From a candidate division WOR-3 bacterium (GTDB lineage: Bacteria > Hydrothermota > Hydrothermia > WGAB01): a stretch of DNA of 64,000 nucleotides. Shown in pieces: positions 1,685 to 46,781 of the stretch (within the stretch, counting starts at the first letter, position 1; each line of letters begins with the position of its first letter). The notes beneath the pieces were generated by a model. That model did no database searches and was not told where the DNA came from. It saw nothing but the letters and a program-made list of their open reading frames with translations. The stretch lies in assembly GCA_015490555.1 (NCBI GenBank), contig WFXO01000029.1, positions 2,024 through 66,023 of the forward strand, written 5' to 3'. The position numbers and the translations under genes were made by a program.

Positions 1685-2175
1685 CGACACTCTTTTGGCT
1701 TTTCGGGGTTTTGGCAATCGTCGGGGCCCTCGGGGTGCTCTTCCAGACCCACCCCGTTCGGGGCGCCCTGTTCCTGCTGTTGAACTTTTTAGCCATCGGC
1801 GTACTTTACTTGCTGGCTCGAGCCCCCTTCGTCGGCTTTGTCCAGATCCTGGTGTACGCCGGCGCGATCGTGGTCCTGTTCCTCGTCGCCATCATGGTCA
1901 TGGACCTCCGACGGTTGGAGTCAGACTTTGACCTCGGACTCATGGGATTCCTGACCTTCGTGCTCGGTGTAGCGTTTTTTGTGATCGTCGCACTCGTCCT
2001 CCTGAAAAACCAGATCCCGGAAGTCTCACCACCCCCGACCGGAACACCAGAAGCCCTGGGAGAGTGGCTGTTCGGACAGTATCTCGTCCCGTTTGAATTG
2101 GCGTCCATCCTCCTCCTGGTCGCAATTGTCGGGGCCATTGTCTTGATCCGAAGGAGAAGACAAGATGTCTCCTAA
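1681..2175 (+). CDS. nuoJ: NADH-quinone oxidoreductase subunit J (NuoJ/ND6)
   Basis: ATG at 1681 (MTTLFWLFGVLAIVGALGVLFQTHPVRGALFLLLNFLAIGVLYLL...) is typical of NuoJ. It overlaps the nuoH stop. The ORF-track start at 1618 is an in-frame upstream extension. Confidence 0.85.
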   Translation: MTTLFWLFGVLAIVGALGVLFQTHPVRGALFLLLNFLAIGVLYLLARAPFVGFVQILVYAGAIVVLFLVAIMVMDLRRLESDFDLGLMGFLTFVLGVAFFVIVALVLLKNQIPEVSPPPTGTPEALGEWLFGQYLVPFELASILLLVAIVGAIVLIRRRRQDVS

Positions 2176-2473
2176 CGCCTACATCCTCCTCGGCCTCCTC
2201 TTGTTTACCATCGGGATGATCGGCGTGCTGTTCCGACGAAACTTGATGTTCATCCTGATGAATCTGGAACTGATGATGAACGCAGTTGGCCTGGTCCTCG
2301 TGGGCGCCTCTCTCGGCGGATGGATCGAAGGACAACTCATCATCCTGATGATCCTTGTGGTCGCCGCCTCAGAGGTGGCCATCGGCATCGGGATCCTGAT
2401 CAACGTCGTCCGGCTTACCGGCCGTCCGGATGTGGACCACCTCCCTAAAGCCCCGGAGGAATCCACACCATGA
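2165..2473 (+). CDS. nuoK: NADH-quinone oxidoreductase subunit K (NuoK/ND4L)
   Basis: 102 aa with three TM helices. MSPNAYILLGLLLFTIGMIGVLFRRNLMFILMNLELMMNAV is the canonical NuoK sequence. Confidence 0.9.
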   Translation: MSPNAYILLGLLLFTIGMIGVLFRRNLMFILMNLELMMNAVGLVLVGASLGGWIEGQLIILMILVVAASEVAIGIGILINVVRLTGRPDVDHLPKAPEESTP

Positions 2474-4359: not shown

Positions 4360-4363
4360 CGCG

Positions 4364-32173: not shown

Positions 32174-35100
32174 ATGCCGAAACGAAAAAAACACGTTGCG
32201 TCTGTCCCCTATGAAGCCGTTGCCGAAGCCAACCCGATGGGCATCCTGCTCATCGCACCCGACGCCACGATCCGATATGTCAACAAAGCCTTTTGCAAAC
32301 TCACGGGTCTAAAGAAATCCGACCTGCTGGGCAAGCTTTTCACGATTCTCCGAGATTTTGTGGTTCCGGAAGACCGCCAAAAGGTCTGGGAATACTTCCA
32401 AAAACGTATTGCCGGCAAGAAGGTTCCAATCCAGTACCAGATCCGGGCCATTATGAAGGATGGGACTCGGAAGTGGGTTGAGGTTTCTGCGTATCCCATC
32501 GAAACACCGGAAGGTCGCCTCATCCAAGCGACCATTGCAGACATCACAGATCGTAAGAAGATCGAAGCAGAATTAGAGCGGGATCGCCACATCCAGCGCA
32601 TTTTAAACCAGATCCTTCGGCTTTCTTTAGAGGTTCCCTCTCTTTCGGAATACTTTGAATCCGTCTTGGAGATTCTGGTCCGCATTCCCTGGTTAGCCCT
32701 CGAGGAAAAGGGGGCCATCTTTTTAATCGATCCAGAGACCCAAACCCTTCGCGTAGCAGCCCACCGAAACTTCCCTATGGAACAATTACAACGGTGTCAA
32801 AACATTCCGCTGGGGAAGTGCATTTGTGGAAAGGCTGCCCAGCAAAAGAAAGTCCTCTTTGTCCCATGGGTGGATGAGAGACACGAGTTCCGCTATCCCG
32901 GGATGCCTCCCCACGGGCACTATTGTGTCCCGATCTTGTACGGAGATGAGGTCCTGGGGTTACTCAACCTTTATGTTCCGGAAGGGCACATTTATGACCT
33001 CGAGGAAGAAGCCCTCCTCACGGCAGTGGCTGCGATCTTAGCGGGGGTGATATACCGCAAACGCACCGAAGAAGCCCATCGTGAAACTGAAGAACTCTTT
33101 CGAACCTTGGCCTCCACCATCGGGGCAGGGGTTTTTGTCTACCAAGACGATCGCTTTGTCTACGTGAATAAAGCCTGTGAAGAACTGACTGGCTATACGT
33201 CTGAAGAATTGCTCCAAATGAAGTTCTGGGATGTCGTCGCTCCTGAGTATCAAGACCTTGTGCGGGAACGTGGACTGGCTCGACAACGGGGAGAACCTGT
33301 TCCCACTTCTTATGAATTCAAAATTGTGCGAAAGGACGGGACAGAGCGCTGGGTGGTTTTCACCGCTGGCCGAATCCAATGGAAAGGCCGGCCTGCCGGG
33401 GTCGGGACAGCATTTGACATTACCGACCGAAAGAGAGCAGAAGAAGCCCTCCGCGAAAGTGAAGCCCGTTTCCGTAGTATCTTTGAAAACGCGACGGTCG
33501 GGATCTATCGAACCACTCCGGATGGCCGAATCCTGCTGGCCAATCCGGCGTTGGTTCGGATGCTGGGGTATTCCACCTTTGAGGAACTCGCCCAGCGGAA
33601 TTTAGAAGAAGAGGGCTTCGAACCCCAATATCCGCGTTCCAAATTTAAAGAATTGGTGGAACGGAATGGGGTGGTCATTGGCTTGGAAACGGCCTGGAAA
33701 CGAAGAGATGGCTCGGTCATCTTTGTCCGAGAAAGTGCCCGTGCCGTCCGCGACCCTGAAACCGGGAAGGTGTTATATTACGAAGGCATTGTCGAGGATA
33801 TCACCGATTGGAAAAAAGCAGAGCAGGCGCTACAGGAACAACTGGAATTCCTTCGGTACGTCATCGATTCCCTTGACCATCCCTTTTATGTGATCAATGC
33901 AGAGACCTATGAGATTGAGCAGGCCAATCAAGTGCTCCTTCAAGGACGCCCTCTCGAACCTGGCACCACTTGTTACCGCCTGACGCATCAAAGGGATGTC
34001 CCCTGTGCAGAGTCAGGCTTCCCGTGTCCTTTAGAAGAAATCAAACGGACCAAACAACCTGTTGTAGTAGAACACACGCACTATGACGTTCATGGAAAGG
34101 AACATATTTATGAGATTCATGGACACCCAGTTTTCGATCGGGAAGGGAACGTAACCCGTGTGATCGAATTCACGATTGACATCACGCCCAGAAAGCGCCT
34201 TGAGCGGGCCTTAAGTAGTTTGGCACAAAGTTACGCCCATCTGACCGGAAAAGCGTTCCTGGATGCCGTCACACAACATATCGCCCAAGCAATGAAATTA
34301 GATGTCGTTTTTGTTGGGGAACTTTTACCAAATGGAGAGCAAATTAAGGTCCTTTCAGCCTTCGGCATGCCCATTGAAGGGAGAATTTACAACTTAGAGC
34401 ATACCCCCTGTGAAGATGTCATCAACAAACAATTGGTCGTTTACCCTGAAAGAGTCCAACATTTGTTCCCCAAAGATCCGGAACTCAAGGAATGGGGCAT
34501 CGAGGGGTACATTGGGACACCCCTCTTCGACCCAGACCACCGGCCTCTAGGAATTATGGTGGGACTTTCGAAACAGGTGATCGAGGACCCAAGGCTTCTG
34601 GAAGAGTATTTCCAAGTCTTTGTGGATCGGGTGACCGCGGAACTCCTGCGGATGAAAGCGGATGAAGCTCTCCGGGAAAGTGAAGAGCGGTTTCGTATGC
34701 TGGCAGAATCTTCGTTAACGGGGATTTACCTCATCCAGGAGGGCAAGTTTGTCTATGTCAACCAAGCCTTCGAATCTATCTTTGGATATTCCGTAGAAGA
34801 AATTATCGGGAAACTCGGGCCCTTAGATTTAACGTATCCCGAGGATCGCCCGATCGTTCAGGAGAATATTCGGAAAAGAATAGAGGGAGAAATTGACAGC
34901 ATCCGGTATGATTTTCGGGGACTGAGGAAGGATGGAACGGTCATCCACATCGAGGTGCACGGTCGACGAATTGTCTATCAGGGGAAACCGGGCATCATTG
35001 GGACACTGGTGGACATTACGGAACGGAAGCAGGCAGAGGAAGAGATTGCTCGGAGCCATCAACTCCTCATGGCTTTGAGCCAGGCTGCCCAGGAAGTCCA

Positions 35101-37120
35101 ACGTGCCCGCTCTCCGGAAGAAGTATACCAAATTGTCGGAGAACACATCCATCGCTTGGGGTATGATGCAACCATTTTTGAGTATGACGCTGAGCAACAC
35201 CTCCTTCGTGTGGCTCACCTTACATTGAGCCCAGAAGAAAAGAAAGTTTTGGAGGGGATCCTTCAGCGACCTGTGGAGGGATTTTGGATTCCCATCAAGC
35301 CGGGCAGTTTATACCACCGGATTCTCACGCTGGGTAAAACCGTGTTTATCGCGACGGATGAGATTTCAGAGGAAGGTGAACCCAAGCACCCCTCCCCGTC
35401 CTTCTACCAATGGGCAAAGCAGTTGGGATGGGAACACAACATCATTGCTCCTTTAAAGACCCAGGAAAAAACCTTGGGGTTTCTGGCGGTTTCGGGGAAA
35501 GGTTTGACGGAGGCGGATGTCAGGGTGATCTCCATCTTTGCGAACCAGGCGGCGGTTGCCTTAGAAAACGCTCGACTTTACCGTGAGACTCGAGAACTTG
35601 CAACTTTTAATCAGCGAATCATTGAAAATGTTGCCGACGGGATCGTGATTCAGGATCGAAATGGAGTCTTCACATTCGTAAACCCCTCTGCGGCGAAGAT
35701 CCTTGGCTATCAGGTACAGGAACTCATCGGGAAACACGCCATGGACGTGGTCCCCGAGGACCAACGTCCAATTTTAGAAGAGATCCAACAAAGGCGCGTG
35801 CATGGGGTTACGGACCGTTATGAATTAGATCTTTTGAAGAAGGACGGGACACGGATCCATGCCCTCATCTCGGCCACCCCGCTTTTTGACGAACAGGGCA
35901 ACTTCGTCGGGTCCCTTTCGGTGTTCACGGATATCACAGCCCTGAAAAAGGCCGAAGAAGAGCAAGAGCGGTTGCGTGAGCAACTCTTTCAGGCCCAGAA
36001 ACTTGAAGCAATTGGACGCCTGGCCGGGGGCATCGCTCACGACTTCAACAACATCCTCACGGCCATTATGGGGCACGCGGAACTGGGAATGATGAAAATC
36101 CATCCCGGCGACCCCGTGTACCTCGATCTCAAAGAGATCTTCGATGCGGCAAAACGATCTGCTGATCTTACGTCCAAACTCCTTGGTTTTGCCAGGAAAC
36201 AGACGATCCTCCCCAAAGTCCAGAACCTGAACGAAACGATTACCGGAATGTTGGGGATGCTGAGAAGATTGATTGGAGAGGACATCGAGTTAAAATGGGT
36301 CCCGGGCACAGATCTTTGGAACATCCGGATCGATCCCCAGCAAGTCAATCAAATTCTGACAAACCTCTTGGTGAACGCGAAGGACGCAGGAGCCCGGGTC
36401 GTTACCATTGAAACAGAAAACATCACCATCAAGGAACCATATCTCGAGAAGCATCCATATTTCAAGCCGGGAGACTACGTCGTGCTTTCTGTCAGCGATG
36501 ACGGCTGTGGGATGGACGAGGAGACACTCCAGCACATTTTCGAGCCCTTCTTCACGACCAAAGAGCCTGGCAAAGGGACCGGACTCGGCTTATCCACCGT
36601 CTATGGGATCGTGAAACAAAACGATGGGTTCATCCATGTGTACAGTGAACTCGGCGTTGGAACTACGTTTAAGATTTACTTCCCTCGGCATGAGGGGGAA
36701 ACAGAAGAAGGGCACGAGGAAGAGGGTCGTTTGGCGCCAGGGCATGGGGAGACCGTGCTTCTGGTCGAAGATGAGGCAAAAATTCTGAGTGTGGTGAAAG
36801 CAATGTTAGAACAACTGGGATATCGAGTTTTGACCGCCAATCGTCCCCACAAGGCACTTGAAATTGCCAGGAAACATGCGGGTCAAATCGATTTGCTCCT
36901 CACCGATGTGGTGATGCCAGAGATGAGTGGGAAGGAGTTGGCAGAACAATTAACCCAACTCTTCCCGAATTTGAAAGTTCTGTATATGTCCGGCTACACA
37001 GCCAATCACATTGCCAACCATGGGGTCCTGGATCCAGGGGTTGCGTTTGTGTCCAAGCCACTCAGAATCCAAGAATTGGCGAAAAAGGTGCGTGAAGTCT
37101 TAGACCACAAACGTTCATAA
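32174..37120 (+). CDS. Hybrid sensor histidine kinase / response regulator with multiple PAS and GAF domains
   Basis: 1648 aa. At least six PAS/PAC-like modules (repeated ...RKDG(T/S)...W(V/I)...TDRK(R/K)AEEAL linker pattern) and GAF-like segments. HisKA H-box IAHDFNNILTAIMGHAELG. HATPase_c (N, G1 DDGCGMD, G2 GTGLGLS). C-terminal receiver domain VLLVEDE...LLLTDVVMPEMSG... Confidence 0.85.
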   Translation: MPKRKKHVASVPYEAVAEANPMGILLIAPDATIRYVNKAFCKLTGLKKSDLLGKLFTILRDFVVPEDRQKVWEYFQKRIAGKKVPIQYQIRAIMKDGTRKWVEVSAYPIETPEGRLIQATIADITDRKKIEAELERDRHIQRILNQILRLSLEVPSLSEYFESVLEILVRIPWLALEEKGAIFLIDPETQTLRVAAHRNFPMEQLQRCQNIPLGKCICGKAAQQKKVLFVPWVDERHEFRYPGMPPHGHYCVPILYGDEVLGLLNLYVPEGHIYDLEEEALLTAVAAILAGVIYRKRTEEAHRETEELFRTLASTIGAGVFVYQDDRFVYVNKACEELTGYTSEELLQMKFWDVVAPEYQDLVRERGLARQRGEPVPTSYEFKIVRKDGTERWVVFTAGRIQWKGRPAGVGTAFDITDRKRAEEALRESEARFRSIFENATVGIYRTTPDGRILLANPALVRMLGYSTFEELAQRNLEEEGFEPQYPRSKFKELVERNGVVIGLETAWKRRDGSVIFVRESARAVRDPETGKVLYYEGIVEDITDWKKAEQALQEQLEFLRYVIDSLDHPFYVINAETYEIEQANQVLLQGRPLEPGTTCYRLTHQRDVPCAESGFPCPLEEIKRTKQPVVVEHTHYDVHGKEHIYEIHGHPVFDREGNVTRVIEFTIDITPRKRLERALSSLAQSYAHLTGKAFLDAVTQHIAQAMKLDVVFVGELLPNGEQIKVLSAFGMPIEGRIYNLEHTPCEDVINKQLVVYPERVQHLFPKDPELKEWGIEGYIGTPLFDPDHRPLGIMVGLSKQVIEDPRLLEEYFQVFVDRVTAELLRMKADEALRESEERFRMLAESSLTGIYLIQEGKFVYVNQAFESIFGYSVEEIIGKLGPLDLTYPEDRPIVQENIRKRIEGEIDSIRYDFRGLRKDGTVIHIEVHGRRIVYQGKPGIIGTLVDITERKQAEEEIARSHQLLMALSQAAQEVQRARSPEEVYQIVGEHIHRLGYDATIFEYDAEQHLLRVAHLTLSPEEKKVLEGILQRPVEGFWIPIKPGSLYHRILTLGKTVFIATDEISEEGEPKHPSPSFYQWAKQLGWEHNIIAPLKTQEKTLGFLAVSGKGLTEADVRVISIFANQAAVALENARLYRETRELATFNQRIIENVADGIVIQDRNGVFTFVNPSAAKILGYQVQELIGKHAMDVVPEDQRPILEEIQQRRVHGVTDRYELDLLKKDGTRIHALISATPLFDEQGNFVGSLSVFTDITALKKAEEEQERLREQLFQAQKLEAIGRLAGGIAHDFNNILTAIMGHAELGMMKIHPGDPVYLDLKEIFDAAKRSADLTSKLLGFARKQTILPKVQNLNETITGMLGMLRRLIGEDIELKWVPGTDLWNIRIDPQQVNQILTNLLVNAKDAGARVVTIETENITIKEPYLEKHPYFKPGDYVVLSVSDDGCGMDEETLQHIFEPFFTTKEPGKGTGLGLSTVYGIVKQNDGFIHVYSELGVGTTFKIYFPRHEGETEEGHEEEGRLAPGHGETVLLVEDEAKILSVVKAMLEQLGYRVLTANRPHKALEIARKHAGQIDLLLTDVVMPEMSGKELAEQLTQLFPNLKVLYMSGYTANHIANHGVLDPGVAFVSKPLRIQELAKKVREVLDHKRS

Positions 37121-37332: not shown

Positions 37333-40107
37333 TTACAACAGGTTTTTTGGAACCCAGAAGACGAATTGGAAGCGCCACTGTTTTTCCGTTGTCCACAAGG
37401 GGAAGACCACTTTGCCCCACGAACCTCCGAGGGTTATGCCTGCCTCGCTCCGTAGTTGATTCCATGGCGATTTGGGAAGGATTGTCCAGACATTTCCGAT
37501 CTGTCCATAGACCTCGACCCACCGAATGCGCAGAGCAATCCCTGCGACGAACTTGGCCGAACCTCGCTGGAGTTCTCCTGCGGATCCCCAAAGTCCTGGT
37601 CCGATACTAAGGTGGGTGCCGGATGGAGAAAACGACCCAGTGGAGGGAATCAGGAGCCCATACAGAGGAGGTTCTCGCGTTGCCCCCTGCAAGAGGAACT
37701 GTTCTTGCTTAGGAGCCTCTCCGAAAATAGCGCCTCCAAAAATCCAAGCGGAGACAGACCAAGGGAACCCGACGCTCCCCTTGATAAACCCCGTAACCTT
37801 TCGATACCGCCATCTTCCAAATCCCATGCTCCCCTTTCCGCGAAGGTGGAGAGTCCAAAACGGCTGACTTTTGGACCATCTATACAGGAAAGAAAGTCGC
37901 TGATGAATCCCGCGTTCAAAAATTTCGGTGTTATAAAACCGCAAATCTTGGATTGCCTCGTGGAACCATTCAACCGAAAGGCTCTGACGAGATGGGGTCA
38001 ACATACGAGAAAGAAAATTCCTCTGGAAATGGACACGGGCCTCGGATCCACCCGGCAGGAGGTTGATCTCCACTCCCCATCGGGCGAGTGTTTGAAACAT
38101 GGGTTCCTGCAAGGAAAAGGAGATCATCGGACGATGAGTTTTTAGACTGTATCCCAGCGAGAGGAGCAAGGTGTGTCGTAATAGCGCTTGGGTTCCAAAA
38201 AGAGCCACTCCCGGGACCCATCCGGTGGGGGAATCCCACGTGACCCAGGGGGTCCAGAAAAGCCAAAACGCATTCACTTGAAACGGCTTCAGGTGGAAAG
38301 CAGAACTCCAGAGAATCTTCCGGGGCAGTGCATTGTTCCATTCATCCGTCTCTGGCACCACATTGTGTGGATCGAGTTCAATGTGTGTGGGCGTAAAAGG
38401 GACCGTGATTCTGTTGGCGCTGGGATCCATAAGAACCACCGTGTCCAGTGTCTCCCCACGACCTCCCTGCAGGTTCAGCGATACTGGCAGGGGGAAGGAG
38501 ACCCCTGTTTGGACGGCCAACGTCGCCATTTCCTGCCCGTCTTGCAAGGCTTTTTCGACTTTTGCAACACGGAGATCCGGCTTCGGGGTCTCATAAAGCC
38601 AGGGCGAAAGGATTTGTCGAGCCGGGAAATCTACGTGTGCTTCCACCCAACGTAAAAAGTCCTCCGTGGTCACATGGTGGAACGCATAGGTTTCAAAGTA
38701 CCCCCTCATCAGGGAATCGAACGGTTCAGGACCCAAAATTTCCCATAGCATCCACAGAACCTTGGCTCCTTTTGTGTAGATATTGGTCCAATAAGAAGTT
38801 GCCTCATAGGCCTTTCTTCCAAGAATCGGTTCATCCCATGAGGAGTTCAATTGCCAATAGAGGCCGATTTCCTCGATCGCCTCCACGGGGTTGCCCTGGA
38901 AGAATTCCGTAATAGGATCGGAAAACCACGTCTTCTGTTGCTGCCGCCAATGCATATAACGTTGTTCTGCAAAGGTTGCAAACCCCTCATCCAGCCAAGC
39001 CTCATCCATCTCATTATTTCCCAAGATTCCATAGAACCATTGATGCGCAATCTCATGAACCACAACTGCTTCATAAAAACTTGGGACTTTCGATGCAAGT
39101 CCAGCAATTTTTGGGTCCAGAGAAATCAACACCAGTGTGGGATACTCCATCCCCGAGGAGATTCCAACGGTTCCGTTGACAATTTTGAGCGTAGAATAGG
39201 GGTAAGGGAAGAACCACTCACTGAATTTTTGGAGAATGCGTGGGACTTCATGCCGGAGCGAATCCCAGAGGGGTACATGGGCCACATCTCGACGGATGAA
39301 GAATTGGATCGAGGTATTTTGAAAAACCGTATCCCGAACCACGAAGGTTGAATCCGCAATCCAGGCAAAGTCATGGACCTGTTCCGCATGGAAATAAAGT
39401 GTTTTCCAGCGACCCACGTGATCTTCACCCACCTGTTGTCCCGTGGCTCCAACCTGAAAGGGTTCCGGCACGGTAATCCACACATCGTAGGTTCCATATT
39501 CCCCGTAGAACTCGCCGGTGGCATGATAACCGTCCGGATGCCACCAGCCCGAACGCCCCCGGTATTCAGACTCCGGAAGGCCTAATGGAGGGGCCACGGG
39601 GCGGTGAGAGTCATACACAGCCACCTTCGGGTACCACTGCGTTACCACAAACTGCCCCCGGTCATGTCCCATTCGAGAAAAGATTTTTGAAAGTTTGACC
39701 GTAAAGTGCATCGTAAAGGTCGTTGTGGAGCCCGGCAATAGGGGTTGGGGCAAGTAAACTTTCATCTCGGTGTCAACCACCTTTGTGGAACATGGCACTC
39801 CGTCTTGGGTCAATTGCGTGACTTCAATCCACCCTAAATCTTGTTCACGGGCGCGGAGTAACCGAAAGTTCCCCTCCTGAGCAGCCTCACGGGCGTAAAT
39901 GGACGTTTTCTGGTAGGCGTTCGGGTAAAGATGGAACCAAACGAAGGGAAGGGTATCCGGTGAATGATTGGTGTACACCAGTGTCTCCGTTGCCTCTATC
40001 AATGTAGAGTCGACGTTGAGCCGGACCTGAATTTGATACCGAACCCCCTGCTGCCATGAAACCATCCCTAAAGTGACGCCCCACCATATCACTCCCAAAA
40101 GCCCCAT
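37333..40107 (-). CDS. M1-family zinc aminopeptidase (gluzincin) with ~430-aa C-terminal Trp/Gly-rich beta-rich extension
   Basis: 924 aa. GMEYPTLV (GAMEN-like exopeptidase motif) and VVHEIAHQWFYGILGNNEMDEAWLDEGFATF (HExxH + 18 + E) are present. The N-terminal half is M1 aminopeptidase-like. The C-terminal half (approx. 37333-38660) has no recognisable family. It has alternating aromatic/hydrophobic beta-strand-like patterning and ends ...WRFQFVFWVPKNLL. Confidence 0.7.
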   Translation of the reverse strand: MGLLGVIWWGVTLGMVSWQQGVRYQIQVRLNVDSTLIEATETLVYTNHSPDTLPFVWFHLYPNAYQKTSIYAREAAQEGNFRLLRAREQDLGWIEVTQLTQDGVPCSTKVVDTEMKVYLPQPLLPGSTTTFTMHFTVKLSKIFSRMGHDRGQFVVTQWYPKVAVYDSHRPVAPPLGLPESEYRGRSGWWHPDGYHATGEFYGEYGTYDVWITVPEPFQVGATGQQVGEDHVGRWKTLYFHAEQVHDFAWIADSTFVVRDTVFQNTSIQFFIRRDVAHVPLWDSLRHEVPRILQKFSEWFFPYPYSTLKIVNGTVGISSGMEYPTLVLISLDPKIAGLASKVPSFYEAVVVHEIAHQWFYGILGNNEMDEAWLDEGFATFAEQRYMHWRQQQKTWFSDPITEFFQGNPVEAIEEIGLYWQLNSSWDEPILGRKAYEATSYWTNIYTKGAKVLWMLWEILGPEPFDSLMRGYFETYAFHHVTTEDFLRWVEAHVDFPARQILSPWLYETPKPDLRVAKVEKALQDGQEMATLAVQTGVSFPLPVSLNLQGGRGETLDTVVLMDPSANRITVPFTPTHIELDPHNVVPETDEWNNALPRKILWSSAFHLKPFQVNAFWLFWTPWVTWDSPTGWVPGVALFGTQALLRHTLLLSLGYSLKTHRPMISFSLQEPMFQTLARWGVEINLLPGGSEARVHFQRNFLSRMLTPSRQSLSVEWFHEAIQDLRFYNTEIFERGIHQRLSFLYRWSKSQPFWTLHLRGKGSMGFGRWRYRKVTGFIKGSVGFPWSVSAWIFGGAIFGEAPKQEQFLLQGATREPPLYGLLIPSTGSFSPSGTHLSIGPGLWGSAGELQRGSAKFVAGIALRIRWVEVYGQIGNVWTILPKSPWNQLRSEAGITLGGSWGKVVFPLWTTEKQWRFQFVFWVPKNLL

Positions 40108-40184: not shown

Positions 40185-41468
40185 TTAGAGCCCCGTTTTC
40201 AGTCGTAGAAACACAAAGGGATTCAACGAGGTTTTTTGGCTCTCCATCAGAACCTTTCCGCCCAAACGGACTCGGAGATAGGGGAAGGGATCCCAGATCA
40301 GCGTGAGCATGTGGACCTTCGATGTCTGTCCGGCTCGGTAACTAAACTGGGAGTAATGGTCGTACAGGAAGTCATAGACGAAGCGGGTATTTCGGATCCG
40401 ATAAAACGCACGGAAGAAAATGGAGTAATCCGTTGACCGATCGAGGTCTCTATCGGGCAAGTACTTTCCCTCAAAGCCCCAGGTCCCGAAGTCCGCTCCC
40501 AGAGCTCCTCCGATCAGATGGAGGGTCTCATACGAGAAATCCACAAGTTTTTGGGTGGTATCTTGGACCACGGTCCGGGGGTCCGGGTCTCGAAGCCAGG
40601 CCGCGTAGCCTTTCACGTAAAAGGGAGCAATCACAGTGGCTCGGACCGTTCCAGAGACCTTCCAGTTATGGGCACGCAACTGCGAATTCCAGTAAAAATT
40701 GGGATCAAATTTTTCAAACTCAACGGAAACGTAATCTTCCCCACGATACGTGTAACTCATTTCCAACTGATAATCGGGAATTTGCGCATAGGCATTGGCG
40801 TCCGGATTCGGGTTGATTGCGGGTGGATACGAATAGTGTTTATTCCGATAGCCGAATCGGAGGTACATGCGATATATGGGGAAGAAATACGCATCGATCC
40901 ACAAATTTGTACGGCGATAAAAGAGTTTATCGGTCTTGGCGTACCCCACATAGAGGTCTAAACGGTCCCACCCACCCCAAAACAGAGTTCCTGTCATCGA
41001 GTTCTGTGTGTAGTCGACTTCCCAGCCTCCGTAAGAGGCCATTACGTGGAGACTTCGTCGTAACCGTAGGTTCTGGAGATCGAACCTTGCCTCCTGGTCT
41101 GTGGGACGGTATTTAAGGACTTCCTCGAGGATCTTTTCCGCTTCATGGTACCGGCGCATCCACTTTAAGACCGTGGCCATTTGTTTCAGGATCTCTGGAT
41201 CCGGCTCAGGACTGAGATCTCTTGCTTTCTTGAAAAAGTGAAGTGCACGTTGAAGATCTCCTTGTTGTTTATGGAGTTTGCCCATCAGAAAAAGATACCG
41301 GGGGTTCCGGGGATCTTCCTCAAGCAGTTGTTGGAGAATTTCCAGGGCTTCTTGATACTGATGAGCGTTGAGGGCCTGGACAGCCAAGGATTCTTGATGA
41401 GATTTCTCTGAGGTCACAGAGCCCATTTGTGGGCCTTGTGTGAGCAACAGAAGAAGAAGCACCTTCAT
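40185..41468 (-). CDS. TPR-repeat protein with C-terminal Tyr/Phe-rich putative outer-membrane beta-barrel (PgaA/PelB-like export scaffold candidate)
   Basis: 427 aa. Hydrophobic N-terminus. TPR-like helices in residues ~30-150 (...LFLMGKLHKQQGDLQRALHFFKKARDLSPE...). The remaining ~280 aa have amphipathic beta-strand periodicity (YVGYAKTDKLFYRRTNLWIDAYFFPIYRMYLRFGYRNKHY...). Family assignment is an inference. Confidence 0.45.
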   Translation of the reverse strand: MKVLLLLLLTQGPQMGSVTSEKSHQESLAVQALNAHQYQEALEILQQLLEEDPRNPRYLFLMGKLHKQQGDLQRALHFFKKARDLSPEPDPEILKQMATVLKWMRRYHEAEKILEEVLKYRPTDQEARFDLQNLRLRRSLHVMASYGGWEVDYTQNSMTGTLFWGGWDRLDLYVGYAKTDKLFYRRTNLWIDAYFFPIYRMYLRFGYRNKHYSYPPAINPNPDANAYAQIPDYQLEMSYTYRGEDYVSVEFEKFDPNFYWNSQLRAHNWKVSGTVRATVIAPFYVKGYAAWLRDPDPRTVVQDTTQKLVDFSYETLHLIGGALGADFGTWGFEGKYLPDRDLDRSTDYSIFFRAFYRIRNTRFVYDFLYDHYSQFSYRAGQTSKVHMLTLIWDPFPYLRVRLGGKVLMESQKTSLNPFVFLRLKTGL

Positions 41469-42394
41469 TCAGCACCTCCTTTCAGGGTCCAACGATACAA
41501 AGTTTCTAAAACTTCTGGGACATGGAGCACATTTGCCCCCACCCTGGCGTTGATTTCCAACACCTTGGGAGTGCCTTGTGCATCCCGCCGAATGTCCATG
41601 TCAATCGGTCCTTCCAGGGACAGGGCTTTGACAACGCGAACGGCCAAGTCATAGAGATCCTTTTCTTCCGGTGCTGGCTCAACAGCCAGGGCATTTCCCA
41701 CAATCCCGTCTTTCAGTTGGGTTTTCCGCAACACGCCGATCGCTTGGATTTCCCCTGCGGGGTATGCAAAAAGATTCACATCGAATTCCTCCCCTGCAAC
41801 GAATTCTTGATAAACAACCCCTTCTTGATTCTCTTCCTGGATTTTGCTTGGGGATCGGAAGACTTTGACCCCTCGGCCTCCCCGCCCAAACACCGGCTTC
41901 TGGACAAAGGGATATCCCAAAATCCTCCCGGCCTCGTGGGGGCCTCGGACTTCCTTCCAAAGCAGAGTCTTGGGGGCTGGAATCCCCAGTCGATGAAGCG
42001 CCTGGGCGGTCTTGTACTTGTTATTCACAATTTCCACCACTCGATAGGATGGGATAAACACGTGGACACCCAAGGCTCGAATTTTATTTCGCACAGAGGC
42101 AACCTGAGGGAGTTCCTCTGTTACCGTCGGGATCAATAGAGAAACTTCGTGGTCCGCGAGGAAAGAAAGGAGGAACTCCACAAACTCAGGGGTCTCCCCT
42201 GGAGGGACCTCCATCAGTTGGTGGACGGGCGCTTCCACTTCACGGATATCTGTACCGATCACATACCATCCTTTTTCCCGGAAAAAGAGGGCACTCGAAC
42301 GGCCGGCTGGTCCTCCTACCCCTGTAATCAGGACGGTTCGGGACGGTTCTTTGGGAGGGAGATGTCCTTGCATCTGGTTTGTTGTAGAATTCAA
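41465..42394 (-). CDS. ATP-grasp family ligase (carboxylate-amine ligase-like)
   Basis: 309 aa. N-terminal Rossmann-like VLITGVGGPAGRSSALFF, central ATP-grasp fold, ...LEINARVGANV near the C-terminus. TTG at 42394 or ATG at 42373 as start. Stop overlaps the start of the TPR/barrel gene. Confidence 0.6.
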   Translation of the reverse strand: MNSTTNQMQGHLPPKEPSRTVLITGVGGPAGRSSALFFREKGWYVIGTDIREVEAPVHQLMEVPPGETPEFVEFLLSFLADHEVSLLIPTVTEELPQVASVRNKIRALGVHVFIPSYRVVEIVNNKYKTAQALHRLGIPAPKTLLWKEVRGPHEAGRILGYPFVQKPVFGRGGRGVKVFRSPSKIQEENQEGVVYQEFVAGEEFDVNLFAYPAGEIQAIGVLRKTQLKDGIVGNALAVEPAPEEKDLYDLAVRVVKALSLEGPIDMDIRRDAQGTPKVLEINARVGANVLHVPEVLETLYRWTLKGGAE

Positions 42395-42489
42395 TTCTGT
42401 AACAATTCCTTTCTTGTGGCAATTGAATTGTATAATTATACAGTTGCAATTTGTTCACCGATGCGCATTGAACGATACGGAGGCAAACC
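42395..42489. promoter_or_regulatory. AT-rich divergent promoter/operator region with 14-bp perfect palindrome TGTATAATTATACA
   Basis: A ~95-bp intergenic stretch that is strongly AT-rich relative to the window. TGTATAATTATACA lies at 42429-42442 and contains a TATAAT hexamer. It is flanked by CAATTG/TTGCAA palindromic half-sites (CAATTGAATTG...CAGTTGCAATTTG). ACGGAGG SD precedes the ATG at 42490. Confidence 0.45.
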
Positions 42490-44325
42490 ATGCAAATGTG
42501 GATCCTGGTTGCGGTCTTACTCCATGGGGTTCATGTGAAAACCCTTCAGGAAGGTCTGCAATTTTTAGAAGCCGGCCAATTTGGGAAAGCCGAACAGAAA
42601 TTTCAGGAAGTACTCTTAGAAAATCCCGATTATCTCCCGGCCTTGAAAGCCCTGGCTGAAGTCAAAATCCGATTAAATCAGTTACAAGAAGCCCGAGATC
42701 TCCTAAAGAAAGTCGTAACCCAAGACCCTCGCGATCTGGGGGCCATGGTGACTTTGGCGGATGTCTATTCATGGCTGGGAGACTATGACCGGTCTATTGC
42801 CCTCTACAAAGATGTCATCGAACAAGACTCCACCAATTTGGCCGCCTTAAAAGGTCTTGGACGTGTTCTTCGATGGGCGCAACGGTACGATGAATCCATT
42901 CATTATTATCGCAAGGTTTTGGAAGTTGAGCCCGATGACGTAGGAGCCCTCAAAGGCCTCGCGTTGAGTTATGCCCTTTACAAAAATTTCGATGAGGCCC
43001 TGAAATGGATTGAGAAGGCCGTTGAACTTTATCCGGACAACCCCGATGTCCTCAAAACCAAAGGGGATATCCTGGCCTGGAGCAATCATTTTAAGGAAGC
43101 CGAACGGGTCTATCGACTGGCCTTAAAAGTTTCTCCGAAGTCTCCGGATATCTATCAAAGTCTCGGAAGCCTCTACAAGTGGTGGGGCAAGTACACTCGG
43201 GCGGTGGAGGCTTACGAAAAAGCCTATAATCTCCAACCCAACAATCCACAAATCCTACAGGCCTTTGCACAAACTGCTCTCAAGGCGGGACAACTCAAAA
43301 AGGCGGAAACCGCCGCAGAGAAACTTCTCCAACTCGATCCACAGAACGAAACCGCGCTCAGTATCCTCCACACACTCCAGGCAGGACAGGGCATCACCTT
43401 TTACCACTTGATTGAAGAAGTGGTTGAACCGATCGTAATGATCACAACCCTTCTCCTCTTGGTCATCTACTTCCGTCGCCGTCAAGATATTCTTCGCCGT
43501 CGCCATCGCTTTTTCTGGATCTTCACCCACTGGGTTGTCCCCACCCTATTTCTTCTTTTGGTGATCGCCTTCTTCCTCCTGAAAGGCCTCAATCTGTGGG
43601 GATCCGACATCGCTATAGAAGTCATGGAAATTCTGATCTTCATCGTGCTCCTTTTAGGTGTTGCCACTCTGCTCTGGGTTTCACGAACACGGGAACGGGA
43701 AGTGGGACGCGCCGTGCTCGCGATCGGGGCTCACCCCGATGACATCGAACTGGGATGTGGGGGAACCCTGGCGAAATATAAAGATCTGGGATATAAGGTC
43801 TATGCAATGGTTATGACTTCTGGAGAGGAAGGAGTTCCGGATCCAGAAAAACACCGCGAACGGCAAAAGGAGGCGACCCAGGGCGCCCATATCCTGGGGA
43901 TCGACCAATTGTGGATTTACCGATTTAAGGACACCGAACTCTCCAAGCACATCAACGAGATGAAGAAAGAAATCGAGAAAAAAATCCAAGAGACCGGGGC
44001 CACCGTCATTATCACGCAATCTCCTTATGACACCCACCAAGACCATAAAGCGGTATTTGAAGCCACGAAGATCGCCGCTCGAGGCCCAAAAGTTCTCCTC
44101 TGTTACGAAGACGTCTCAACAGAACCCCACTTCGTTCCGAACTTTTTTGTGGATATCACCGAGTACATCGAGGACAAAATTGAGGCGATTCAACAACATC
44201 GAACTCAGCGAAATAAGTCCTACATGAATCCTGAGAATATCCGTGGGCGTGCCGCTCATCGAGGGCTTCAAGTGGGAGTGAAATACGCTGAAGCCTTCAT
44301 TTGCATGAAGTGGGTGGATACATGA
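42490..44325 (+). CDS. TPR-repeat / 3-TM / LmbE(PIG-L)-family N-acetylglucosaminyl deacetylase fusion protein
   Basis: 611 aa. Signal/anchor followed by ~8 TPR repeats (residues ~20-300). Three hydrophobic helices (~310-400). C-terminal AVLAIGAHPDDIELGCGGTLAKY...VMTSGEEG...SPYDTHQDHKAV is the PIG-L/LmbE zinc-deacetylase signature (AHPDDE, HxDH). Confidence 0.7.
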   Translation: MQMWILVAVLLHGVHVKTLQEGLQFLEAGQFGKAEQKFQEVLLENPDYLPALKALAEVKIRLNQLQEARDLLKKVVTQDPRDLGAMVTLADVYSWLGDYDRSIALYKDVIEQDSTNLAALKGLGRVLRWAQRYDESIHYYRKVLEVEPDDVGALKGLALSYALYKNFDEALKWIEKAVELYPDNPDVLKTKGDILAWSNHFKEAERVYRLALKVSPKSPDIYQSLGSLYKWWGKYTRAVEAYEKAYNLQPNNPQILQAFAQTALKAGQLKKAETAAEKLLQLDPQNETALSILHTLQAGQGITFYHLIEEVVEPIVMITTLLLLVIYFRRRQDILRRRHRFFWIFTHWVVPTLFLLLVIAFFLLKGLNLWGSDIAIEVMEILIFIVLLLGVATLLWVSRTREREVGRAVLAIGAHPDDIELGCGGTLAKYKDLGYKVYAMVMTSGEEGVPDPEKHRERQKEATQGAHILGIDQLWIYRFKDTELSKHINEMKKEIEKKIQETGATVIITQSPYDTHQDHKAVFEATKIAARGPKVLLCYEDVSTEPHFVPNFFVDITEYIEDKIEAIQQHRTQRNKSYMNPENIRGRAAHRGLQVGVKYAEAFICMKWVDT

Positions 44326-46781
44326 CAGTTTTTCTTTCCCTATTCTTTGCTTTTGGCCTTGCCATCTTTTTTTTCGGGCTCCAAACCCTCTTTTTCTACC
44401 CCCTTTCTCTGTACTACGAGGTCTGGAAGAAGCGTTTTTATCGAAAACACCGGGACCCCTCCTTCTTCCCTCTTGTCTCCGTCCTGATTCCTGCATATAA
44501 CGAGGAGTCTACCATCCGGATGTGTGTCGAGTCCGTCTTATCGTCCGATTACCCATCCTTTGAGGTCATTGTCATTGATGACGGGTCTACCGATCGCACA
44601 GCCGAACGGATCCGGGATTATGTGGCTTCTGGGAAGATCCGATACATCTGGAAGCCCAATGGAGGTAAGGCCTCTGCATTAAATCGTGGCATCCAGGAAG
44701 CACAGGGAGAGATCATTGTATACACCGATGCCGACTCCCTGTTTCGGCCAGACACCTTACAAAAACTCGTGCGTTGGTTTGTTTCCCCCAGGATCGACGC
44801 AGTGTGCGGAAATGATACCCCGATCCATCCCACTTCAGCACTTCAGAAGTTGCTGACCATCACGACCCATATTGGAACAGGTTTCGTAAGGCGTGCGCTT
44901 TCTGTTTTGAACGTCCTGCCCATCATCTCTGGGAATTCGGGCGCTGTTCGTAAGGATCTGTTGGAGAAAGTTGGAGGGTTTACGGAGATCTGGGGGGAGG
45001 ATCTGGACCTCACCTTTAAGTTACATAAGGCACGGGCCCGGATCGTTTTTGACCCCGAGGCACTGGTGATTTCCGAAACTCCGAAGAACCTATCGACGCT
45101 CTGGAAACAACGGGTCCGATGGATGCGAAGTTTTTTGAAAATCTGTGGACTCCACAAAGATCTCTTTTTCAATCCACGATATTTTCCATTTTCTTTTTAT
45201 CTCCCCATTAACTGGGTCAACATGGTCGTTGTCCCGGTATTCCAACTGATGGCGTTTGTTCTCCTTCCACTGGCCATCCACTTGGGAGTGTATCGTTGGG
45301 GAGGCCTTGTCGATGTCATCGCATACTTAGGGTTCGGCCTCTTCCTGGTCGTCTCCGTTTACAGCACTCTCCTGGACCGTGCATTTGGACATCTCAAATA
45401 TATTCCGCTCTACGGGTGGCTTATGATCCCCTTGTCGTATTTCTATAACGCGGTGTTGGTATACTCCATTTACAAAGAGATTCGAGGTGCGGAGGAGCGA
45501 TGGGAGAAAATTACCCGTCGGGAACTGGAGCAACTTGGAGAGACCCGGGCCATCCCTTTCTGGCATCGCCGATGGACGTGGGCAATTGGTGGAACCACAG
45601 TCCTTTTCCTCTTCCTGGCCCTTGGGCTTATGCTCCGTCGTCATCACTCTGCCGTTGCCCTTCCTCCGTCAGGGGCTCAGGTCCCCCCTGTCTTTGCGAT
45701 TGCAACCCACTTTGATGCTTGGCCAGATCCGGAACAAGCGATCCAGAGTGTTTTAAAACGACCGTATCAAGAGATCATCAACATGGTGGGGGTGAGTGCA
45801 GGCCGATATGAATGGAACAATTTCCGTTGGAAAGGCCATGAACAAACATGGAGTAACGACCAGAAGGCGGCACCGTACGATCTTTTAACACACGCGATTC
45901 AGAAGTTTCAAGCGCAAGGGAAAAAGGTCGTCGCGATTGTGGACTTTTATGCCCCAGCCTATCTCAAGGAACACCCCGAAGACGCCGCGGTGGGGGTGGA
46001 CGGCCGGGTCAGCACCGAACAGGTCTGTTTTACCGAACTCGTACGCGGAAAATATGGACGGCTTCTTGTCGAAATGATCACATACTTGGCCAAACATTAC
46101 GACCTGAAAGCCATCAGTCTAACAGAATTGGAATACCACCGGTTTTGTTATGATGAGCGGTGTCTGAAACTCTTTCAGGAGCGAACGGGAGAACGAGGGT
46201 GGCCGCGCACGTTCTTCCCCCGGAGAATCGATAAAGATCATCCCAAGATCGCCAGGTGGCGCTCTCAACTGATGTACGAATATCTTCGAGAAATCGCGGA
46301 TTCTGTACACAAGTACGGCAAAGACCTTTATGTCGATGTCCCGGTAGACTGGAAACGAATGGACCATGAAGGGATTGAGACCGGGCTCTACTATCCCTGG
46401 GTGCTTCGTGTTGCCGATGCGATTATCGTTTGGGATTATTTCTACTTGGAGAATCGCCCCCCCGAAACCTCTGAAGAAGTGGCGCGGTTTTTCACCGAGC
46501 GGTATGGTGCCACCCGTGTGATCCTCTCTTTAGGCCTGTGGGGGAAATCCCATCCCGTCTCTCCCGAGGAACTTGCGACCGCACTTTACCACTCTCTCCA
46601 AGGGGGAGCCCAGAAACTGTGGATCACCCCGAACCACTTGCTCACGCCGCAACACTGGCAACGAGTTCTCGAGGTGTTGGGGGTGTTGAAACCCAAGGAA
46701 GCGATGGAACTCCACCCTCAACGGGTCGAAGATTTTGGAAATGTTCGAGGGACGATCCCCCACCGTTTCAGGATCGGATAG
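44322..46781 (+). CDS. Membrane-embedded GT2 processive glycosyltransferase (PgaC/NodC/cellulose-synthase-like) fused to ~380-aa uncharacterised C-terminal domain
   Basis: ATG at 44322 overlaps the upstream stop (ATGA). The track ORF starts at TTG 44301. GT2 motifs: VSVLIPAYNEESTI, VIVIDDGSTD (DxD), YTDADS, and QRVRWMRS (Q(R/Q)xRW processivity motif). Multiple TM helices flank the catalytic domain and follow it (~aa 290-440). The C-terminal domain (approx. 45650-46781) has no family I can name. It may be a TIM-barrel glycosidase-like fold. Confidence 0.75.
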   Translation: MTVFLSLFFAFGLAIFFFGLQTLFFYPLSLYYEVWKKRFYRKHRDPSFFPLVSVLIPAYNEESTIRMCVESVLSSDYPSFEVIVIDDGSTDRTAERIRDYVASGKIRYIWKPNGGKASALNRGIQEAQGEIIVYTDADSLFRPDTLQKLVRWFVSPRIDAVCGNDTPIHPTSALQKLLTITTHIGTGFVRRALSVLNVLPIISGNSGAVRKDLLEKVGGFTEIWGEDLDLTFKLHKARARIVFDPEALVISETPKNLSTLWKQRVRWMRSFLKICGLHKDLFFNPRYFPFSFYLPINWVNMVVVPVFQLMAFVLLPLAIHLGVYRWGGLVDVIAYLGFGLFLVVSVYSTLLDRAFGHLKYIPLYGWLMIPLSYFYNAVLVYSIYKEIRGAEERWEKITRRELEQLGETRAIPFWHRRWTWAIGGTTVLFLFLALGLMLRRHHSAVALPPSGAQVPPVFAIATHFDAWPDPEQAIQSVLKRPYQEIINMVGVSAGRYEWNNFRWKGHEQTWSNDQKAAPYDLLTHAIQKFQAQGKKVVAIVDFYAPAYLKEHPEDAAVGVDGRVSTEQVCFTELVRGKYGRLLVEMITYLAKHYDLKAISLTELEYHRFCYDERCLKLFQERTGERGWPRTFFPRRIDKDHPKIARWRSQLMYEYLREIADSVHKYGKDLYVDVPVDWKRMDHEGIETGLYYPWVLRVADAIIVWDYFYLENRPPETSEEVARFFTERYGATRVILSLGLWGKSHPVSPEELATALYHSLQGGAQKLWITPNHLLTPQHWQRVLEVLGVLKPKEAMELHPQRVEDFGNVRGTIPHRFRIG

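Follow-up and report, generated by a model that had tools for sequence, protein, structure and literature searches.

We have analysed a gene cassette in a 64,000-nucleotide stretch of DNA from a candidate division WOR-3 bacterium (assembly GCA_015490555.1, contig WFXO01000029.1, positions 2,024 to 66,023 of the forward strand), referred to here as the window. A first-pass annotation of the window had proposed that four adjacent genes in a divergent arrangement form an exopolysaccharide system. Its parts were a membrane-bound processive synthase of glycosyltransferase family 2 (GT2) with a Q(R/Q)xRW motif and an extra C-terminal domain of ~380 residues, a zinc-dependent PIG-L/LmbE-type deacetylase, rather than a CE4 enzyme, fused to tetratricopeptide repeats (TPRs) and three transmembrane (TM) helices, a co-located ATP-grasp ligase, and a TPR protein with a predicted beta-barrel. 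All of these open reading frames (ORFs) and domains are present (Table 1), and only the start codons needed refinement. The most likely start of the ATP-grasp gene lies at 42373, as in the NCBI gene call, within an ORF of 41465–42394, and the synthase starts at the ATG at 44322, as in the public gene call, within an ORF of 44301–46781. In both pairs of co-oriented genes, the second gene overlaps the first in the tetranucleotide ATGA, which suggests translational coupling within each half-operon.

Table 1 Features of the cassette; positions are those of the window and residues are numbered within each protein
Feature	Position (nt)	Strand	Residues	Content or basis
Outer-membrane export protein	40185..41468	-	427 in all	Signal peptide, TPR, beta-barrel
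Its beta-barrel	40197..41051	-	140–424	
Its seven TPR helices	41058..41408	-	21–137	
ATGA overlap, ATP-grasp/export protein	41465..41468	-		
Soluble cytoplasmic ATP-grasp ligase	41465..42373	-	302 in all	Pfam ATP-grasp_3
Divergent intergenic region, 116 bp	42374..42489	.		Read from sequence
Promoter-like site (putative)	42422..42394	-		Consensus scan
Perfect 14-bp palindrome	42429..42442			
Inner-membrane TPR / 3TM / PIG-L protein	42490..44325	+	611 in all	Pfam PIG-L and TPR
Its TPR region	42547..43389	+	20–300	
Its three TM helices	43432..43680	+	315–397	
Its PIG-L/LmbE domain	43702..44322	+	405–611	Pfam PF02585
Metal-site motif HPDD	43732..43743	+	415–418	
Metal-site motif HQDH	44035..44046	+	516–519	
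ATGA overlap, PIG-L/GT2	44322..44325	+		
Synthase	44322..46781	+	819 in all	Pfam GT2, TIGR03937 PgaC_IcaA
Its GT2 catalytic domain	~44457..45146	+		
Motif DDGS	44577	+		
Motif TDADS	44724	+		
Motif GEDLD	44994	+		
Motif QRVRW	45108..45122	+	263–267	
Its membrane/interface helix region	45198..45632	+		
Its C-terminal domain, (beta/alpha)8 glycoside-hydrolase-like barrel, predicted periplasmic	45684..46736	+		

The synthase ORF matches Pfam Glycos_transf_2 (8e-39), after which ~380 residues follow with no family above its cut-off. The best NCBIfam model for the GT2 part is TIGR03937 PgaC_IcaA (1.3e-48), with 166 bits against an equivalog cut-off of 422, and the identity to PgaC of Escherichia coli is 32% over 223 residues (E = 3e-30). 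NodC (TIGR04242) matches at 7.5e-21 with 74.5 bits, and CelA and other models also score lower than PgaC. All motifs of processive synthases are found, including the predicted Q(R/Q)xRW motif as QRVRW, and an alignment of 119 full-length homologs shows DDGS, TDADS, GEDL and QRxRW to be more than 90% conserved. With one N-terminal helix and 3–4 C-terminal membrane or interface helices, the protein thus has what the generic synthase-dependent class calls for, namely a processive GT2 with the D, DxD, (T/G)ED and QxxRW motifs and a membrane channel region. A lipid-linked, non-processive enzyme of the DPM/ArnC type, which would have spoken against a polymer synthase, was considered and rejected, those models matching at just ~1e-8 to 1e-10 as against 1e-48 for PgaC. 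The numbers of lysine and arginine residues per loop (means over the homologs) are 4.4 after the first TM helix and 0.46 in the loop joining the next two clear TM helices; after a weaker third helix, the linker has a mean of 7.8 (minimum 4), and 2.8 follow the last TM helix. Because the chain is this much more basic before the anchor than after it (7.8 against 2.8), the C-terminal domain is predicted to be extracytoplasmic, with the first helix oriented N-out and the GT2 domain in the cytoplasm.

An AlphaFold2 model of the C-terminal domain (26 sequences) is a (beta/alpha)8 barrel with a mean predicted local distance difference test score (pLDDT) of 91.4 and a predicted template modelling score (pTM) of 0.89, and the nearest known folds are Cwp19 and the glycoside hydrolase (GH) 153 domain of PgaB. 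The extra domain noted in the first-pass annotation is therefore a GH-like TIM barrel, predicted to be periplasmic. Four acidic residues are invariant: D in THFD (45705), D in IVDFY, E in LTELE (46119) and D in YVDVP (46329). In domain numbering they are D25, D101, E162 and D232, at the ends of strands 1, 3, 4 and 5. At the level of sequence the family stands apart. The only Pfam match of the window protein is DUF4838 (18.7 bits, cut-off 26.6), GHL10 and GHL6 each match weakly 4 of the 26 members, and none of these three matches reaches the Pfam gathering threshold. The best match of the domain profile among PDB sequences has E = 0.05–0.06. When 1.84 billion cluster representatives were searched exhaustively with HMMER, just 255 relatives appeared at E ≤ 0.001, 101 of them at E ≤ 1e-30, so that the family is small and discrete. 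The likeness to PgaB is visible in the modelled fold and not in the sequence. Compared with Cwp19 of Clostridioides difficile (GHL10) and with the GH18 chitinases, the domain has no sequence-level membership, and the GH18 motif DxDxE is absent. In lineages where the domain is encoded by a gene of its own, its N terminus carries an export signal, which is a signal peptide in Spirochaetia, a lipobox in Pseudarthrobacter and Roseiflexus and a type II anchor in Methanosarcinales, and these signals independently confirm the extracytoplasmic location. Since the domain resembles the GH153 half of PgaB, the hydrolase or binding role of PgaB would seem to be present, fused to the synthase; GH153 cleaves partially deacetylated poly-N-acetylglucosamine (PNAG) (PMC5933820). 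As a candidate periplasmic polymer-modifying or polymer-cleaving enzyme, the domain offers a GH-like barrel with invariant acidic residues and a predicted periplasmic location. In Chloroflexia (loci L061, 10010–11173, L075, L076 and L087; L071, 7411–9912; L072, 7444–9909), a second paralog of the domain lies directly 3′ of the first, and some of these loci have ORFs with two tandem domains that are distant from the synthase or have none detected in the locus.

The 611-residue protein consists of a signal peptide, a TPR region matched by several Pfam TPR families, three TM helices and a PIG-L/LmbE domain (PF02585, 5e-28, 98.6 bits against a cut-off of 28.2, residues 410–529); a CE4 domain is absent. 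The superfamily signature, as given in PMC4101496, is HxDD plus a histidine with a spacer of 97–148 residues, and the window protein conforms to it with HPDD and HQDH at a spacer of 98–101. The catalytic HxDD + H motif is kept in 64 of 68 homologs, as are 2–3 TM helices before the domain (64/68; all lineages, bacterial and archaeal). The loop after the first TM helix is RRRQDILRRRHR and is rich in arginine and lysine in relatives too (RKKHVLKKRNK, RRSLRRRP and others); the loop after the second helix is short and uncharged, and basic residues follow the third, just before the PIG-L domain. Given the signal peptide before the TPRs and the basic residues after the first and third helices, we predict that the TPR region is periplasmic and that the deacetylase, held by its 3TM anchor, is cytoplasmic. 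Outside the 32 loci with a TPR fusion, described below, the enzyme has no fused TPR and its three helices are kept (Glaciimonas, Arthrobacter, Roseiflexus, Methanosarcinales, Spirochaetia). As the helices persist where the fused TPRs are missing, the 3TM-PIG-L unit would be ancestral and the TPRs an addition of diderm lineages.

This topology bears on the function first ascribed to the cassette. PgaB and PelA deacetylate in the periplasm. The analogy drawn in the first-pass annotation with the PNAG and Pel machines stands for the synthase and for the TPR/porin part; it does not stand for the deacetylase as a substitute for PgaB or PelA, since a domain predicted to lie in the cytoplasm cannot reach a periplasmic polymer. 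A classical PNAG-like scheme, the one to which the first-pass annotation most naturally leads, in which a periplasmic PIG-L domain partially de-N-acetylates the finished polymer, as PgaB, IcaB and PelA do, and the ATP-grasp protein has an unrelated or regulatory role, would suit a parts list that parallels pgaABCD and the need of Pga and Pel export for partial deacetylation (PMC5933820). We nevertheless consider it quite improbable: the signal peptide and TPRs before the three helices, the basic RRRQDILRRRHR loop and the basic residues after the third helix place PIG-L in the cytoplasm, the 3TM-PIG-L unit also occurs in monoderms and archaea, and an ATP-grasp gene in 62/62 loci, mostly immediately beside that for PIG-L, argues for coupled chemistry.

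The best NCBIfam match of the PIG-L domain is BshB1 (5.5e-29), at 101.5 bits against a cut-off of 182.5, and BshB2 reaches 55.7 bits against 195. In the loci examined, thiol-pathway genes never lie beside PIG-L, the neighbours always being GT2, ATP-grasp and the TIM barrel. A role in mycothiol or bacillithiol biosynthesis, which the first-pass annotation had named as evidence that would count against its proposal, was thus rejected, with scores under the cut-offs and the wrong gene context. More broadly, the cassette might make no polymer, its product being a small glucosamine conjugate or glycolipid made by a non-processive GT2 in the manner of mycothiol, bacillithiol or glycosylphosphatidylinositol. 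The sequence of glycosyltransferase, deacetylase and ATP-dependent ligase is indeed that of MshA/B/C and BshA/B/C, BshB1 is the best-matching model, and the eukaryotic PIG-L enzyme has a membrane lipid as its substrate, on the cytoplasmic side (PMC4101496). The GT2, however, has QxxRW, GED and a multi-helix membrane region and resembles PgaC, not the GT4 enzymes MshA and BshA; the BshB1 and BshB2 scores are under their cut-offs; and a cytoplasmic thiol would have no use for TPR arms, a GH-like barrel in the periplasm or a porin of the PelB/PgaA type. Of all the explanations considered we give this one the smallest chance.

Enzymes of the ATP-grasp superfamily couple carboxylates to amines. The window protein matches ATP-grasp_3 (PF02655, 1e-14, 55.3 bits against a cut-off of 23.2) and has the fold, the glycine-rich loop (QKPVFGRGGRG) and the E-x-N motif (EINAR, for Mg/ATP) that define the superfamily, together with GVGGPAG in its N-domain. 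Its nearest NCBIfam model is the uncharacterised "CPSase-like" type PRK12767 (115 bits, below the cut-off of 218). The best PDB match is 2pn1 (1e-13, function unknown), followed by the L-amino-acid ligase 3vot (7e-8), and the RimK, LysX and PurK types are more distant than these two. Over 120 homologs were found, all with generic names. The protein has neither a signal peptide nor a TM helix and, because it has no export signal and needs ATP, it presumably works in the cytoplasm. It is possible that PIG-L and the ATP-grasp protein do not modify a glycan at all and instead serve another substrate (such as a partner protein, a peptide or an intermediate of recycling) or, in the main, a structural purpose, with the 3TM segment acting like PgaD/IcaD. 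A PgaD/IcaD homolog is missing while the 3TM segment is conserved everywhere, and the nearest characterised ATP-grasp relatives ligate amino acids (L-amino-acid ligase, RimK, LysX). Even so, we hold this to be improbable, since the conserved HPDD/HxDH motifs of PIG-L and the EINAR motif and glycine-rich loop of the ligase indicate that both are probably active, and the characterised LmbE enzymes all act on GlcNAc or N-acyl-glucosamine moieties (PMC4101496). A class IV (D-amino-acid/branched-chain) aminotransferase gene adjoins the cassette in Aminicenantes and Anaeromyxobacteraceae (L004, 10549–11637; L005, 6928–8016; L008, 1550–2740). It could supply a D-amino acid to the ligase; the gene is not conserved beside the cassette elsewhere.

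The 427-residue protein has a signal peptide, and Pfam recognises its TPRs (residues 25–135) and nothing in the following ~290 residues. AlphaFold2 gives this second part as a 16-stranded beta-barrel (pLDDT 89.5), and the three top structural matches of the protein are PelB, BcsC and PgaA, which are the three porins known from synthase-dependent systems, so that the predicted barrel is borne out as a porin of the PelB/BcsC/PgaA type by structure. An outer-membrane barrel coupled to a periplasmic TPR scaffold, as expected of the generic class, is thereby present. By sequence, the PgaA equivalog TIGR03939 scores 24 bits against a cut-off of 367. Among the scanned loci, the barrel is found only in diderm lineages. 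In Aminicenantes, its gene is split into two ORFs in one assembly and intact in a related one (L004, 4811–6133, and L005, as against L012, 4503–5825), so that the split reflects a sequencing error or else a pseudogene. In Glaciimonas, Collimonas and Stakelama (L050, 10160–11422, L057, L059 and L064), a secreted protein of ~420 residues with N-terminal TPRs is encoded after the synthase; it has no match to the barrel hidden Markov model (HMM) and may be a diverged porin or another scaffold.

To follow the cassette across genomes, one genome per species was scanned with the profile of the C-terminal domain; 185,579 species yielded 99 relatives, of which 80 were kept, and every locus was then scanned in six frames with an HMM for each part. 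The GT2, the C-terminal domain, PIG-L and ATP-grasp occur together in 62 non-redundant loci, bacterial and archaeal. All 62 loci with sufficient contig hold this full core, including the ATP-grasp gene, and there is no intact counter-example. Eleven loci are short of a partner, and all of these are cut by a contig end except L078 (Chloroflexia), which is pseudogenised with the whole cassette fragmented; 10 further loci are stand-alone paralogs of the C-terminal domain. The first-pass annotation had named unlinked genes in relatives as a finding that would tell against a system; the linkage is instead strict, and with 62/62 loci in many phyla we reject chance adjacency. Full-length homologs of the synthase with its C-terminal domain number over 120, in many phyla, at 45–67% identity and ~95% coverage. 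Six neighbourhoods taken from them (Bacteroidota, Aminicenantes, a Deltaproteobacteria metagenome-assembled genome (MAG), an Anaeromyxobacteraceae contig and two metagenome contigs) have the order ATP-grasp, barrel, TPR/PIG-L, GT2 with C-terminal domain.

The taxa with the core include Acidobacteriota, Myxococcota, Nitrospirota, Bacteroidota, Chloroflexi, Actinobacteria, Betaproteobacteria, Spirochaetes and Methanosarcinales, and its architecture varies among them. The form seen in the window, with a fused synthase, barrel and TPR-PIG-L protein, accounts for 32 loci (Bacteroidota, Acidobacteriota, Nitrospirota, Deltaproteobacteria/Thermodesulfobacteriota, Myxococcota/Anaeromyxobacter, Aminicenantes). 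Four loci (Glaciimonas soli, two Collimonas and Stakelama marina) have a fused synthase, a stand-alone 3TM-PIG-L and a separate TPR protein, and another four, from Spirochaetota (three named loci), have split genes and a barrel. Split genes with neither barrel nor TPR are found in 19 loci, from Chloroflexi including Roseiflexus, Actinobacteria including Arthrobacter and Pseudarthrobacter, and Methanosarcinales and Methanotrichaceae; the remaining three are mixed. Four parts thus make up the invariant core (GT2, TIM barrel, 3TM-PIG-L and ATP-grasp), and the outer-membrane barrel and the TPR parts are additions seen only in diderm lineages. In four archaeal loci (L048, L053, L054 and L060; Methanosarcinales, Methanotrichaceae and Methanosarcina MAGs), PIG-L, ATP-grasp, GT2 and the C-terminal domain are four separate genes, which would imply transfer of the core between domains of life, if these contigs are not MAG contamination. 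All-against-all clustering of the flanking ORFs found no additional gene that exceeded 14 of ~60 loci; generic ABC transporter domains made up the largest clusters. As no other flanking gene is conserved, the cassette appears to be self-contained. A CHASE/GAF/GGDEF diguanylate cyclase gene adjoins it in five loci (L015, L018, L059, L068 at 2172–4382, and L069) from Nitrospirae, Deltaproteobacteria, Collimonas and Spirochaetes, which hints at control by cyclic di-GMP, of the kind seen with biofilms, in some lineages.

From the domain identities, conserved motifs, folds and gene linkage described above, we infer a topology, a polymer chemistry, an order of steps and what PIG-L and the ATP-grasp ligase act on. 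On balance, and with considerable reserve, we think that the cassette probably encodes a self-contained synthase-dependent machine that spans the envelope and makes a PNAG-like polysaccharide of the GlcNAc type, whose amine is edited in the cytoplasm. The PgaC-like GT2 would polymerise a sugar derived from UDP-N-acetylhexosamine at the cytoplasmic face and thread the chain through its own membrane channel. At the same face, the 3TM-held PIG-L domain would remove the N-acetyl group before channel entry, and the soluble ATP-grasp enzyme beside it would use ATP to ligate a carboxylate (an amino acid or organic acid) to the freed amine. Docking of PIG-L on the synthase would fall to the 3TM segment, which would perhaps replace PgaD/IcaD. 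In the periplasm, the GH153/GHL10-like TIM barrel of the synthase would bind or trim the chain. Two TPR arms would guide it, one belonging to the PIG-L protein and anchored in the inner membrane, the other being the short arm of the porin, and it would leave through the 16-stranded PelB/BcsC/PgaA-like barrel. Editing is placed before translocation because PIG-L and the ligase, both predicted to be cytoplasmic, could not act on a translocated polymer. Deacetylation followed by re-acylation is the simplest reading of the pair, since LmbE enzymes hydrolyse the N-acyl group of GlcNAc or glucosamine derivatives and an ATP-grasp enzyme would couple a carboxylate with the amine; the same order is known from LpxC/LpxD, MshB/MshC, BshB/BshC and NodB/NodA. 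According to PMC4101496, all characterised enzymes of the LmbE superfamily act on a GlcNAc or N-acyl-glucosamine moiety.

The most likely substrate of this editing would be the nucleotide-sugar donor, which we favour because the chain end is buried in processive synthases and the loci have no conserved alternative exporter. The main rival follows the logic of the Nod factors. PIG-L would deacetylate one terminal or primer GlcNAc and the ligase acylate that amine, yielding a cap, an anchor or a start unit and not a substituent repeated along the chain. NodC, with NodB acting in the cytoplasm on the terminal GlcNAc and NodA N-acylating it, is a precedent, and NodC is among the matches of the GT2 (TIGR04242, 7.5e-21). 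A conserved membrane anchor of PIG-L beside the synthase would suit a membrane-proximal chain end or a lipid-linked primer, and the characterised LmbE enzymes use GlcNAc glycosides (PMC4101496) and are not known to use nucleotide sugars. Against this, in processive synthases such as BcsA and HAS, the growing end lies inaccessible within the active site, a conserved ABC exporter such as NodIJ is absent from the loci, and PgaC outscores NodC (166 against 74.5 bits). We therefore regard chain-end editing as unlikely, though as the explanation to be taken most seriously after donor editing.

Several observations weigh against the scheme of a PNAG-like machine with donor editing. The identity of the polymer is read from 32% identity to PgaC and from modelled folds. 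Profile–profile comparison by hhalign gave no signal between the barrel and PgaA of E. coli (probability 0.3%) or between the C-terminal domain and PgaB of E. coli, and net charge was uninformative as a clue to the polymer for both parts (−8 to +4 for the barrel, −11 for PgaA). Neither PgaD/IcaD nor a conserved small gene with two TM helices was found at the loci, and a Pfam search of the four proteins for the known c-di-GMP receptor domains (PilZ, GGDEF I-site, MshEN) found none. The predicted topology draws on the positive-inside rule and on the export signals of the split genes. The conserved 3TM anchor could point instead to a lipid-linked or chain-end substrate, and we know of no LmbE-family enzyme that acts on a nucleotide sugar, nor does one appear in the available text of PMC4101496.

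Tentatively, and with more doubt than confidence, we extend this to a new class of secreted or cell-wall polymer, a poly-glucosamine carrying amino-acyl or other non-acetyl N-acyl groups that membrane-anchored PIG-L and the ATP-grasp ligase, docked on the synthase, would install in the cytoplasm. If this is true, the cassette would be the first of the synthase-dependent systems to edit its polymer before translocation instead of afterwards, and one common to bacteria and methanogenic archaea. It could also supply a missing biosynthetic route for N-aminoacyl-glucosamine units, for example in Halococcus, where N-glycyl-glucosamine bridges have been reported from the cell wall (Steber & Schleifer 1979, as cited in PMC4187196).

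The cassette shares features with several known systems. With PgaABCD (E. coli, Bordetella) and IcaADBC it has in common a GT2 of the PgaC/IcaA lineage (32% identity) and a metal-dependent de-N-acetylase. Their deacetylase is a CE4 enzyme, whereas that of the cassette is of the PIG-L/LmbE type, 3TM-anchored and predicted to be cytoplasmic. An ATP-grasp enzyme is obligate here and PgaD/IcaD is missing, the GH-like domain is carried by the synthase and not by the deacetylase, and the porin and an inner-membrane protein each carry a part of the TPR scaffold. No protein of the cassette reaches a Pga equivalog cut-off, and the C-terminal domain and the barrel have no sequence match to PgaB and PgaA, respectively. 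In the Pel system (PelB/PelC, PelA), the synthase is the GT4 enzyme PelF and PelA is a periplasmic CE4/GH166 protein, as against GT2 and PIG-L here; the cellulose system (BcsA/BcsC/BcsZ) has no deacetylase, and the cassette has PIG-L. Neither of these has an ATP-grasp enzyme, and a c-di-GMP receptor of the PilZ or PelD type was not seen in the cassette. NodC/NodB/NodA have the same proposed order of chemistry (GT2 HexNAc synthase, cytoplasmic de-N-acetylase, N-acylation). NodB, however, is a CE4 enzyme and NodA an acyl-ACP transferase, not an ATP-grasp ligase, and pentameric products leave through the ABC transporter NodIJ, with no porin, TPR or GH domain in the system. In MshA/B/C, BshA/B/C and LpxC–LpxD, a cytoplasmic LmbE-type (or LpxC) zinc deacetylase likewise frees a glucosamine amine for an energy-dependent acylation. 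There, the products are small molecules or lipids, the glycosyltransferases belong to GT4 and no ligase is an ATP-grasp enzyme, whereas the PIG-L domain of the cassette falls short of the BshB cut-offs and is in every case linked to a synthase and to parts for export.

That the combination did not correspond to any described system had been suggested by the first-pass annotation, and our full-text literature searches agree, having found no paper on it, although an earlier, purely computational mention is possible. These searches found no pairing of ATP-grasp or PIG-L/LmbE with PgaC, exopolysaccharide, synthase-dependent or glycosyltransferase as in this gene set. A paper on a Thauera deacetylase has none of the terms PIG-L, LmbE or ATP-grasp, its enzyme being annotated as a generic polysaccharide deacetylase, and ATP-grasp is not mentioned in the epsSMASH preprint. 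NCBIfam and Pfam have no curated family specific to any of the four proteins, and the names in the databases are generic. What is new, then, is the predicted cytoplasmic editing module, the GH-like family and the minimal porin; the synthase-dependent export half is of the known Pga/Pel/Bcs kind. The characterised synthase-dependent systems form a limited set, and a tool paper of 2025 provides rules for 14 of them. To our knowledge, acetylation, deacetylation and epimerisation of the polymer all take place after translocation in the known systems. A PgaC-like synthase working with a cytoplasmic deacetylase and an ATP-dependent ligase would thus add a new route to the diversity of matrix polymers, and with the cassette would come a new GH-like family and, at 427 residues, a minimal porin of the PelB/PgaA type. 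Its hosts belong to abundant and poorly studied phyla of soil, groundwater and sediment (Acidobacteriota, Myxococcota, Nitrospirota, Thermodesulfobacteriota, Chloroflexi). It is also present in isolates, namely Collimonas antrihumi DSM 104040, Glaciimonas soli GS1, Stakelama marina LXI357, Pseudarthrobacter sp. S9 and several Arthrobacter, which makes the prediction directly testable.

The divergent region between the two half-operons contains the palindrome TGTATAATTATACA, with a TATAAT box on either strand, which may represent overlapping divergent −10 elements or an operator. A GGAGG ribosome-binding site, read from the sequence, lies 6 nt 5′ of the ATG at 42490. The genes flanking the cassette have housekeeping or unrelated functions (M1 peptidase, Maf, McsB/McsA, Dxs, complex I subunits, transketolase, LepA) and are not kept beside it in other genomes. 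Two genes upstream of the cassette is that of a 1648-residue sensor histidine kinase (32174–37120) that combines a CckA-like kinase core with at least six PAS domains, the M1 peptidase gene (37333–40107) lying between the two; the association of kinase and cassette was not seen in other genomes. The G+C content is 0.57 in positions 1–32000 of the window, which include the complex I and transketolase genes, and 0.51 in the cassette and its surroundings. The GT2 of the window and that of the public contig JBPNPE010000136.1 (GCA_054032655.1; locus L001) differ in at least one residue, residue 40 being tyrosine in the window and phenylalanine in the contig, so that the two come from close relatives.

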